NCBI GenBank assembly: GCA_900316245.1
Contig: ONCE01000011.1
Coordinates: 1,827 to 65,826 of the forward strand
Direction: 5' to 3'
Origin: an uncultured Bacteroidales bacterium
Lineage (GTDB): Bacteria > Bacteroidota > Bacteroidia > Bacteroidales > UBA932
DNA: 64,000 nucleotides
The notes beneath the pieces are model-generated. The model saw only the letters and a program-made list of their open reading frames with translations, did not search any database and was not told the DNA's origin. Shown one piece after another: positions 23,415 through 42,736 of this stretch (within the stretch, counting starts at the first letter, position 1; each line of letters begins with the position of its first letter). The position numbers and the translations under genes were made by a program.

Positions 23415-24751
23415 AGCACTATCTTTTCCAAAGTGTTCACCCGCTTGGGGTCATAAGGCCGCTCCACGCGGATGTAATTGCCCGTGTAGCCGCCCATAAT
23501 GCCGTTCTTGACGGACGATTCCCACAGGACGGTCTCTTCCAGGCCCTGGTTGGCGGCCACAAACTCGGCGTGCAGTTCTTCGCACAGGGCTTCCAGCCGG
23601 GCCACGCGCTCGGTCTTGAGGCGGTCCTGCACCTGGTCCTTCCACTCGGCCGCCCGCGTGCCGGGACGGCGGGAGTAAGGGAAGACGTGGATGAAGGCCG
23701 GCCGTACGCGTTCCTTCAGGAAGGCATAGGTCTCCTGGAACAGTTCTTCGGTCTCTCCCGGCAGTCCCACAATCACGTCTATGCCAAAGAACACCTTGGG
23801 CTCTCCGGACCGTTCCATAGCCTGCCGGATATAGTCGATGCGGCTGGCAAACAGGGCGGTGTCATATTTTCGGCCCACTTTCTTCAGAAGCGTATCGCTG
23901 CCGCTCTGCAGCGGAATGTGGAAATGCCGCTGGAACTTGGTTCCCGAGGCAATCCAGTCCACAATTTCCGGCGTAATGAGGTTGGGTTCGATGGACGAAA
24001 TCCGGTACCGCTCAATCCCTTCTACCTTGTTCAGGGCCTTCAGCAGATCCAGGAAAGTCTCTCCGGTAGTTCGCCCGAAGTCTCCCGTATTCACCCCTGT
24101 GAGCACCACTTCCTTCACGCCTTCGGCCGCAATGCTTTCGGCCATCTTCACGCACTCGCAGATGGGAATGTTCCGGCTCCGGCCCCTGGCAAAGGGCACC
24201 GTGCAGTAAGCACAGAAGTTATCGCACCCGTCCTGCACCTTCAAAAAGCTCCGGGTCCTCTCGCCTGTACTGTAGGCGCCAAACACTCCGCCTCCTTTGT
24301 TTGACGTTGCGGAGGGTATTGCCTCTGAAACCCTCCGCTTCGCTACGTCCCTCCCATCGGCTTCGCCGACGGGCCCCTCCCCCTCATTGCCGGGGGCGGC
24401 AAAGGTTTCCGAGGCAACACCCTCCGCAACGTCTGTTAAGATATGGGACTTCTCCGTGGCCCCAAAGACCTTCCAAACACCTTCGATGGAGAGGAGCTGT
24501 TCCTTTCGGAGTTCGGCGTAGCAGCCGGTAACTACGATATGGCCCTCGGGGTTGGTCTTGTGTGCGCGGCGGATGAGGTTGCGGGACTTCTTTTCGGCCG
24601 TTTCCGTGACGGCGCAGGTATTGATGAGGTAGACATCGGCCTGGGCGGTCCAGGGGACGACCTCCCAGCCGGCGGCTACAAAACCGCGCTCGTAGGTGGA
24701 CGTCTCGGCGTAATTGAGCTTGCAGCCCAGGGTGGTGAATGCTATCTTCAT
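23411..24751 (-). CDS. mtaB: tRNA N6-threonylcarbamoyladenosine(37)-C2-methylthiotransferase MtaB
   Basis: TLGCKLNYAE, NTCAVT, TGCYA N-terminal cysteines; radical SAM CDNFCAYC; RTRSFLKVQDG; FHIPLQSG. The interdomain linker contains a palindromic insertion. Confidence 0.9.
   Translation of the reverse strand: MKIAFTTLGCKLNYAETSTYERGFVAAGWEVVPWTAQADVYLINTCAVTETAEKKSRNLIRRAHKTNPEGHIVVTGCYAELRKEQLLSIEGVWKVFGATEKSHILTDVAEGVASETFAAPGNEGEGPVGEADGRDVAKRRVSEAIPSATSNKGGGVFGAYSTGERTRSFLKVQDGCDNFCAYCTVPFARGRSRNIPICECVKMAESIAAEGVKEVVLTGVNTGDFGRTTGETFLDLLKALNKVEGIERYRISSIEPNLITPEIVDWIASGTKFQRHFHIPLQSGSDTLLKKVGRKYDTALFASRIDYIRQAMERSGEPKVFFGIDVIVGLPGETEELFQETYAFLKERVRPAFIHVFPYSRRPGTRAAEWKDQVQDRLKTERVARLEALCEELHAEFVAANQGLEETVLWESSVKNGIMGGYTGNYIRVERPYDPKRVNTLEKIVL
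24303..24433. repeat. 131-bp palindromic (MITE/REP-like) element inside mtaB, read in frame
   Basis: 30-bp terminal inverted repeats, 28/30 identical (gacgttgcggagggtattgcctctgaaacc at 24303-24332; ggtttccgaggcaacaccctccgcaacgtc at 24404-24433). Confidence 0.8.
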
Positions 24752-42584: not shown

Positions 42585-42605
42585 CAAATAATTTCTAACC
42601 GTCGT

Positions 42606-42718
42606 TTGGGCCAGGTGGGATTTCGTGCCGCCCACCGCGCCCGCATAACGAGCCTTTTGCGAACGGAGAGGCCAAAACAATGGGCCAGGTGGTACACGTA
42701 GAATCCCACCTGGCCCAA
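42606..42718. repeat. 113-bp intergenic element with perfect 17-bp terminal inverted repeats (MITE-like)
   Basis: ttgggccaggtgggatt (42606-42622) and aatcccacctggcccaa (42702-42718); an internal 12-bp copy tgggccaggtgg at 42681-42692. Confidence 0.75.
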
Positions 42719-42736
42719 GTCATAATCCCCAAAAGC

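Follow-up and report, generated by a model that had tools for sequence, protein, structure and literature searches.

Within a 64,000-nucleotide stretch of DNA from an uncultured Bacteroidales bacterium (contig ONCE01000011.1 of assembly GCA_900316245.1; the whole stretch is referred to as the window), the gene for the tRNA-modifying enzyme MtaB contains a 131-bp palindrome that is translated as part of the protein. The question raised by this locus is what kind of DNA the palindrome is, and how it came to lie inside a conserved enzyme. The initial annotation, made from the letters of the window alone, had placed it in a family of coding-compatible transposable elements of the miniature inverted-repeat type (MITEs) and had named the Rickettsia palindromic elements (RPEs) as a precedent. 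The insert is probably one copy of a non-autonomous structured palindromic DNA repeat that has risen to many copies in a single family of Bacteroidales from gut and rumen. This is an RPE-like in-frame repeat family and not a classical MITE. G000 denotes the genome of the window DNA (2.24 Mb); other G codes denote genomes and L codes denote sequence loci.

The palindrome within MtaB

The 131-bp unit with 30-bp inverted repeats complementary at 28 of 30 positions (93%) was borne out (coordinates in Table 1). Its arms are separated by 71 nt, and 100 shuffles of the window yielded no comparable inverted repeat. The internal hairpin tcggc-ttc-gccga, also described at the outset, is present at 24357-24369 as the tip of a longer hairpin (24353-24373). 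The surrounding open reading frame (ORF) comprises the Pfam domains UPF0004 (residues 2-92) and Radical_SAM (residues 171-345) and was therefore assigned as an MtaB/MiaB-type methylthiotransferase. Residues from approximately 106 to 150 are encoded by the element and read in frame, giving the peptide DVAEGVASET...VSEAIPSATS on the coding strand. The mirror frame on the opposite strand is likewise open, as had been stated.

The insert had been placed in the linker between the N-terminal and radical-SAM domains, and structural comparison agrees. Relative to the solved MiaB structure 7MJZ, it falls between residues 117 and 154, between aligned blocks. An AlphaFold model of MtaB was made from a 40-sequence alignment (mean predicted local distance difference test score, pLDDT, 87.2; predicted template modelling score, pTM, 0.85). 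Residues 118-153 are the sole segment with pLDDT below 50 and are modelled as coil. The model predicts a disordered inter-domain loop or linker that would be tolerated by the enzyme. Compatibility of such a placement with the fold was examined for MtaB only, where it was found.

In the same alignment, MtaB sequences are 65-90% identical throughout except in the linker, which ranges from approximately 12 to approximately 100 residues. The closest MtaB genes lacking the segment of approximately 44 residues were those of metagenome locus L236 (90% identical), G010 (85% overall, 89% in the C-terminal part) and G007. The palindrome in MtaB is therefore an insertion, and the proposed check against orthologues came out in its favour. 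Among 34 related MtaB genes from metagenomes, 11 have a copy at the same linker position, seven in one orientation and four in the other; a further six have a copy directly 3' of the stop codon. The arms are homologous among the MtaB copies regardless of core orientation. The insertion is therefore old; in some lineages its asymmetric core has undergone flipping or replacement. MtaB has tolerated the insert for as long as several species have been diverging.

The MtaB linker of other species holds further repeat-derived peptides (...CHAERSEAS..., ...CHSERSEES... and ...PGQAGND/PGQARND...), at L035:1144-2379 (G010), L251, L253, L256 and L296. They have the look of small GC-rich hairpin repeats, from different families, that have been translated; the linker would thus be a hotspot for several kinds of hairpin DNA.

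Copies, insertion sites and hosts

G000 was searched with BLAST, with nhmmer and with R1, a covariance model derived from ten copies. The result was approximately 20 full copies, plus a few fragments, spread over 14 contigs. The copies are 119-192 bp long and all fold as long hairpins. R1 matched the MtaB copy over its full length at 119.8 bits (C28:26128-26260, window 24302-24434). With the same model, 36 of 41 genomes in the genus had copies (between 0 and 37 or more per genome, with none in five), as did 10 of 36 other genera of the family and 1 of approximately 148 other genera of the order. Named matching records were Bacteroidales metagenome-assembled genomes from ruminant, horse and chicken gut, including 'Candidatus Cryptobacteroides', 'Bacteroides sp. 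CAG:770' and 'Candidatus Coprenecus'. Judged by these record names, the genus is probably Cryptobacteroides, of the family UBA932. A literature search found no published description of such repeats in Bacteroidales.

These counts dispose of a one-off local inverted duplication within MtaB, which the initial annotation had set out as the alternative (a single copy in the genome, with the same linker in all orthologues), and equally of an assembly artefact. Either would account for the palindromic shape and for nothing else. Both are refuted by the number of copies in G000, by copies in dozens of independent assemblies and metagenome contigs, and by occupation of the same MtaB position in 11 other assemblies.

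Two observations concern contig edges. The best-scoring copy in G000 (C13:584-719) lies approximately 490 bp from the end of a 5S rRNA gene (C13:1-97) at the edge of its contig. Contigs of G010 end exactly where G000 has a copy: C126 starts inside SpoU, and FolP is split on two contigs (C74/C156). The repeat therefore apparently breaks short-read assemblies.

Seven of the 23 copies or fragments in G000 lie in frame in real genes, and the other 16 lie in short spacers directly at gene boundaries, several of them where the neighbouring genes converge or run in the same direction. Relative to transcription, both orientations occur. Six in-frame hosts were verified with Pfam (MtaB, a YgiQ-type Radical_SAM_N protein, a SpoU/TrmH methylase, TruA, YggS and TilS) and the seventh is a FolP-like gene; the YggS and TilS copies of G000 are degenerate. 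The Rickettsia precedent thus held for six conserved enzymes besides MtaB, with presence varying between species at the same sites. All copies seen within genes preserve the reading frame and are free of stops, and these are translated as linkers. Stop-free frames numbered 48 of 120 against approximately 29 expected. This excess is modest, and the genic copies are therefore survivors of selection and not the product of a coding design, which was rejected. Of the term 'coding-compatible', the in-frame hosts stand and the implied design does not: the character follows from a G+C-rich make-up and from selection on survivors.

Filled and empty alleles were compared at further orthologous sites. 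The YgiQ site is filled in G000, G010 and G046 and empty in G007, G011 and G004. The TruA site is filled in G000 and G010 and empty in G004 and G011, and the FolP site is filled in G000 and G046 and empty in G007, G004 and G011. The YggS site holds a full copy in G010 and a decayed copy in G000 and is empty in three other species. At YgiQ and TruA, the copies of G000 and G010 point in opposite directions. Three intergenic sites are empty in G010 or G007; the flanking genes there abut or overlap and no palindrome is present. Arms and core therefore arrive together, and insertion of the core into pre-existing hairpins (e.g. terminators) was rejected on this evidence.

The MtaB site of L240 and the TruA site of G046 each hold a bare palindrome resembling the arms, best taken for a copy whose core has been lost. 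The one in TruA is a 41-nt palindrome, GCGCTCCGGAGGGTGGAGGGATACTCCCTTCCTCCGGAGCG, lying in frame (L212:1770-1815). The TruA site of G007 (L203:1770-1860) contains a cluster of three unrelated small hairpins.

The 5-bp direct repeats TGTTT/TGTTA flanking the MtaB copy, taken originally for a target duplication, did not hold up: the closest insert-free MtaB junctions are too diverged for a duplication to be read. No target-site duplication was seen at MtaB, at perfect-arm copies elsewhere in the genome or at four orthologous empty sites, where the junctions come from diverged species and would still allow a duplication of 1-3 bp. Neither YgiQ nor sites 1-3 supported the idea that the arms are inverted copies of target DNA. 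The empty allele of site 4, a single case, contains TTGTTTCCG, matching an arm tip. This allele (G007, L377:1735-1760) reads TTGTTTCCGTACAAAG, and the arm tips of the filled allele read TGTTTCCG and CGGAAACA. The single case could hint at a target preference for the word GTTTCC, which is also the core's own boundary.

A sequence-conserved core within paired arms

Each full copy folds on its own into one common shape, at -65 to -116 kcal/mol. The unit consists of a sequence-conserved core of approximately 95 nt with three hairpins (P2, P3 and P4), inside an outer stem (P1) of about 20-35 bp; the junction at the core boundary is closed by CGGAAACC/GGTTTCCG. P2, reduced in the MtaB copy, usually has a CTTCG loop and in other copies a stem of 5-7 bp. 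P3 has the family form CCCAC-stem-GCGGG with a conserved A.C mismatch, which in the MtaB copy sets 24356 opposite 24370. P4 has the form CC-T-CCCyC...GrGGG-y-GG with a conserved pyrimidine-pyrimidine mismatch.

Table 1. Positions in the window of the parts of the MtaB copy and of its host gene. The + strand is the strand modelled by R1 and is antisense to MtaB.
Feature	Position	Strand	Basis
Whole repeat unit, 131 bp	24303..24433	+	Covariance model R1 and inverted repeat
5' arm of outer stem P1; 3' end semi-conserved, ...CTCTGAAACC	24303..24332	+	Inverted repeat; pairing changes in 52 copies
Reduced hairpin P2, GCTTCGC (GCGAAGC on the MtaB strand)	24337..24343	+	Alignments and folds
CCCTCCC motif and hairpin P3 (CCCAT-CGGC-TTC-GCCG-ACGGG)	24349..24373	+	52-copy alignment
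Hairpin P4 (CC-T-CCCCC / GGGGG-C-GG), with conserved pyrimidine-pyrimidine mismatch	24376..24399	+	52-copy alignment
3' arm of outer stem P1 (GGTTTCCGAGG...CAACGTC)	24404..24433	+	28/30 complementary to 5' arm
Host gene, MtaB-type radical-SAM methylthiotransferase, 446 aa	23411..24751	-	Pfam, PDB comparison, 40-sequence alignment, AlphaFold model

Covariation was assessed in 52 copies from many genomes. The CCC/GGG pairs of P3 are invariant in all 52 and its apical pairs covary; P4 has five invariant pairs and two that covary (UA/GC/AU/CG and CG/UA). All 29 pairs of the outer stem show double-sided changes. Pairing was observed in 93.5% of cells (62.6% in shuffles), double-sided changes numbered 698 (about 202 in the control), and the covariation score was 0.69 (0.09-0.16 with the partners slid).

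Covariation of this strength, a conserved multi-helix junction and CUUCG-type loops on the modelled strand would also be expected of a structured non-coding RNA gene or a cis-regulatory RNA under selection for its fold. This explanation is nevertheless very unlikely. The pairs comprised 1918 Watson-Crick, 47 G.T (21 from one doubtful pair) and 43 A.C; wobble pairs, at approximately 2%, are thus no commoner than the A.C anti-wobbles, and a wobble excess is absent on both strands. The arms of orthologous copies are perfectly Watson-Crick with no intermediates. In Rfam 15, the MtaB copy gave no match at E-values up to 10 except chance hairpin matches, and four other copies gave no match. With pairing almost wholly of the Watson-Crick kind, copies in either orientation to transcription and inside coding sequence, and no Rfam match, the evidence points to a constraint acting on DNA (on either strand or on a cruciform) and not on RNA.

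Core and arms have evolved differently. Arm identity between copies is approximately 0.33 at any core identity (rho 0.04, 1324 pairs), and each arm is unique in the genome. Between G000 and G010, the core at site 3 is 90% identical and the arms are 42% and 35% identical, with own-arm pairing of 19/19 and 20/20 and flanking coding DNA at 78-82%. At site 4, the core is 81% and the arms 62% and 57% identical, with own-arm pairing of 20/20 and 20/21 and flanking coding DNA at 73-77%. The arms therefore change faster than the neighbouring genes, and in concert, with the core held in sequence. This pattern suggests either that hairpins or cruciforms form often, so that one arm is corrected against the other, or that the DNA hairpin is under strong selection. 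The conserved core with its fixed mismatches is most likely a protein recognition site.

Some copies are enlarged. Those at C27:4927-5116 and C24:92616-92803 of G000 have in common an extra module of approximately 60 nt nested in the P4 loop (...CCCCCTAGTTGCCCCCCTGGGGCACTTGCCCTTACGGGG...), and the copies at C27:98975 and C13:56408 have P3 extensions. The hairpin tips therefore seem open to further insertions.

Candidate mobilisers and known systems

Several findings weigh against a repeat that spreads as a mobile element. Neither G000 nor the genus yielded a transposase, nuclease gene or RAYT with the element on its flanks. No target duplication and no conserved terminal sequence were seen, and strict transposition is accordingly not established. 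No near-identical pair of copies exists within G000, and so there is no sign of very recent movement. The orthologous core is conserved above the flanking genes, which would not be expected of a purely selfish, decaying insert; a host function or gene conversion between copies could account for this. Lastly, in 17 of 20 G000 copies the strand modelled by R1 coincides with the locally G-rich one (p=0.003), but in G042 this holds for 6 of 14 copies, local GC skew being only a proxy for replication direction. The bias is not reproduced and is not claimed as a signature of single-strand transposition.

A host-serving element of DNA or transcript, like the repetitive extragenic palindromic (REP) and BIME sequences or ERIC, would explain part of this. 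It would act as a conserved binding site or, at gene ends, as a terminator or stabilising hairpin, and would be maintained by selection, with the genic copies as accidents. The placement of most copies at gene boundaries, the conservation of the orthologous core (81-90%, against 73-82% for flanking coding DNA) and the long stable hairpins are in keeping with it. Close relatives, however, lack the element at the same gene junctions, and five genomes of the genus have no copy at all. Mixed orientation to transcription, seven copies within coding sequence (where a terminator would be harmful), the Rfam result and the lack of wobble excess on either strand also speak against it, and it is considered rather unlikely.

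The initial annotation had suggested a search for a transposase or RAYT with matching ends. Three diverged HUH-type genes of approximately 310-390 aa are present in G000, at C22:30123-31310 (-), C10:32817-33875 (+) and C19:54683-55624 (+). They have weak Y1_Tnp matches and a C-terminal helix-turn-helix-like tail, and none is flanked by the element. Of the 41 genomes in the genus, 26 have similar Y1/HUH-like genes; genomes with more of these genes tend weakly to have more copies of the element (rho 0.36, p=0.02), with clear exceptions. With so weak a correlation and flanks unlike the element, these RAYT-like genes were rejected as mobiliser. Inverted pairs of copies were also rejected as autonomous elements: the pair in G052 flanks an ABC permease, and one member of the pair in G046 is an in-frame genic copy.

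The same evidence bears on the classical MITE, a deleted insertion sequence whose terminal inverted repeats are recognised by a transposase that makes a target duplication. Size, palindromic ends, non-coding nature and varying copy number would fit, as would the Y1/HUH-like genes and their correlation. The terminal repeats are, however, unrelated between copies, which largely refutes this origin. With no target duplication, no gene flanked by matching ends, Y1-like genes without elements in G016 and elements without Y1-like genes in G039, a classical MITE is highly improbable. What remains of the original proposal is a multi-copy family that inserts in frame; its assignment to MITEs fell with the unconserved arms and the missing target duplication.

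The orthologous sites show that whole units, arms with core, arrive where no palindrome stood before, and units are found in gene-end spacers and in protein loops. The outer stem is free in sequence, its arms being obliged only to pair. In the explanation proposed here, pairing would be restored by correction of one arm against the other through a hairpin or cruciform, or kept by selection for the DNA hairpin. The core would be bound by a trans-acting nuclease or recombinase that spreads the element, or by a host factor.

A more specific version of this explanation concerns DUF559, a Vsr-like nuclease domain. The repeat may be the nuclease-less miniature of a larger selfish element, in which a DUF559 gene is bracketed by inverted double-hairpin ends. 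The nuclease would recognise the core hairpins and fixed mismatches on extruded or single-stranded DNA, and the copies would be moved in trans or would have been orphaned after loss of the nuclease. The core word CCCTCCCA-N(8-16)-CGGGCCCCTCCC matches many Alphaproteobacteria, including Caulobacter, Sphingomonas and Rhodospirillales. The module found there has the same A.C-mismatched hairpin, then a CCCTCTC/GAGAGGG hairpin, with GAAACC upstream; these matches (25-35 bits) were pre-selected by the pattern itself, and the likeness is partly built in. The modules form inverted pairs, which bracket a DUF559 gene in L094:1390-1930 (Pfam E=4e-43) and nothing in L076:2860-3060. DUF559 is multi-copy in 24 of 25 such genomes (1-13 copies per genome), and at least eight loci have a DUF559 copy within approximately 100 bp of a module. 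In Caulobacter, Sphingomonas and relatives the DUF559 genes are small and often lie between inverted two-hairpin modules, and pairs without a gene occur as well; this looks like a repeat-plus-nuclease system. We know of no publication on DUF559 genes bracketed by inverted double-hairpin repeats.

Bacteroidales too have DUF559 frequently: it occurs in 70 of 201 genomes, in part of the cases within very long open frames. Complete domains lie within stop-free frames of 700-1460 aa (e.g. G155:C1:1171583-1171906, G267:C29:19831-20142 and G069:C1:2851474-2851794) and seem to sit in frame within large host genes. Searches for a stand-alone DUF559 were negative in G000, in all 41 genomes of its genus and in those sampled from the family. 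The sole matches there were to the C-terminal domain of a superfamily 1 (SF1) helicase, and a stand-alone DUF559 was rejected as mobiliser within the genus. R1 gave no match in the flanks of 30 Bacteroidales DUF559 cassettes, whose ends have in common with the repeat only a generic CCCTCCC-hairpin flavour. The topology differs as well, with an inverted module pair in Alphaproteobacteria and a single asymmetric core in a long stem here. A DUF559 origin is thus a tentative possibility, on the unlikely side.

Taken one step further, the repeat might be an orphaned miniature derived from a mobile element of a class not yet described. Such an element would encode a single protein, a Vsr-like (DUF559) nuclease, and would end in double hairpins that bear mismatches. 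This enzyme would target the conserved mismatch (G.T on the strand read by MtaB), which is present only in folded DNA, and would cut there. Repair would copy the element into new sites, including protein loops, and arm-to-arm correction would keep the arms paired. This extension is speculative and doubtful. If true, the common core in Alphaproteobacteria and gut Bacteroidales would mark an old or horizontally spread system, like REPIN-RAYT with a different enzyme.

Of the known systems, RPEs are closest in kind. RPEs (Ogata et al. 2000), in the summaries of PMC10969869 and PMC3733652, are multi-copy palindromes of approximately 100-150 bp, found in frame in housekeeping genes and translated. 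Their hosts include a tRNA pseudouridine synthase, presence varies between related species, and these summaries give no dedicated transposase as known (PMC10969869, PMC3733652). The repeat described here is likewise a multi-copy palindrome, in frame in unrelated conserved enzymes, translated, without a dedicated transposase and variable between species: approximately 20 copies were counted, with seven in-frame hosts and insert-free orthologues. It differs in belonging to a free-living gut lineage of another phylum, in having a conserved asymmetric three-hairpin core with arms unrelated between copies, and in being mostly intergenic (16 of 23 copies). The likeness is by kind; with the phylum different, no relationship in sequence is expected, and membership of RPE-1 to RPE-10 is not claimed.

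REP, BIME and REPIN sequences are gene-end hairpins, sometimes intragenic, in which structure prevails over sequence and which are thought to move as folded single-stranded DNA (PMC3733652). REPs are single hairpins of 8-9 bp within 20-40 nt, with a conserved tetranucleotide tag, and for the 'CGTC' REPs a mobilising gene is not known (PMC3733652). The Bacteroidales repeat also lies at gene ends and in some genes, without a mobilising gene having been found. Its units nevertheless measure approximately 130 nt, comprise four helices and lack a conserved terminal tag, GACG...CGTC being present in the MtaB copy only. No GTAG tag was found, and with no element around the HUH-type genes of G000 a REP-RAYT assignment fails.

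ERIC, Correia/NEMIS and Coxiella QMITEs combine a strong predicted hairpin, intergenic preference, occasional in-frame genic copies and strain-variable copy number (PMC10969869). The Bacteroidales repeat resembles these bacterial MITEs in all four respects and in size. The conserved terminal inverted repeats, usual target duplications and parent insertion sequence of MITEs were not seen. With the alphaproteobacterial DUF559 cassettes, pre-selected by the core word, it appears to have in common a two-hairpin module, CCCTCCCA-hairpin-CGGGCCCCTCCC-hairpin, with the same mismatch position and upstream GAAACC, and nuclease-less copies exist there too. It differs in having no associated nuclease in genome, genus or family, and the sampled Bacteroidales DUF559 cassettes have other ends.

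The attC sites of integrons are folded single-strand recombination substrates with conserved unpaired or mismatched bases and mostly free stem sequence. They have conserved R/L boxes at their ends and a variable centre, and their cassettes are flanked by them and lie next to an integrase. A structure-defined substrate is the one respect in which the repeat is alike, a resemblance and not membership. Conserved ends with a variable centre are the reverse of its arrangement, and no integrase cassettes were seen here.

New relative to these known kinds are the lineage, the compound four-helix architecture, and a core decoupled from arms that are free in sequence and strictly paired. In-frame selfish palindromes have so far been regarded mainly as a curiosity of Rickettsia and a few REP-rich Proteobacteria, and are now found in abundant free-living gut and rumen Bacteroidales, where they affect tRNA-modification and cofactor enzymes. 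For annotation, the repeats lengthen conserved proteins, break assemblies and create spurious 'novel' linkers. Biologically, they separate two constraints, a core fixed in sequence and arms fixed in pairing, and offer a natural system for the in vivo maintenance of long DNA palindromes. For mobile elements, a core apparently in common with DUF559-flanked repeats provides a testable candidate enzyme for hairpin repeats without a transposase.

Two minor observations were made. A 919-aa stop-free frame (G000 C24:92616-95375, -) lies antisense to parE (C24:92832-94751, +), the gene for topoisomerase IV subunit B. This frame is spurious because the G+C content at codon positions 1 and 3 is 0.74 and 0.53, and long ORFs in G000 are therefore no proof of genes. 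A second palindrome of the window, which gave no match to the covariance model of the MtaB repeat family and is unrelated to it, is a single-copy intergenic sequence of 123 bp at 42601-42723 that folds at -66 kcal/mol.

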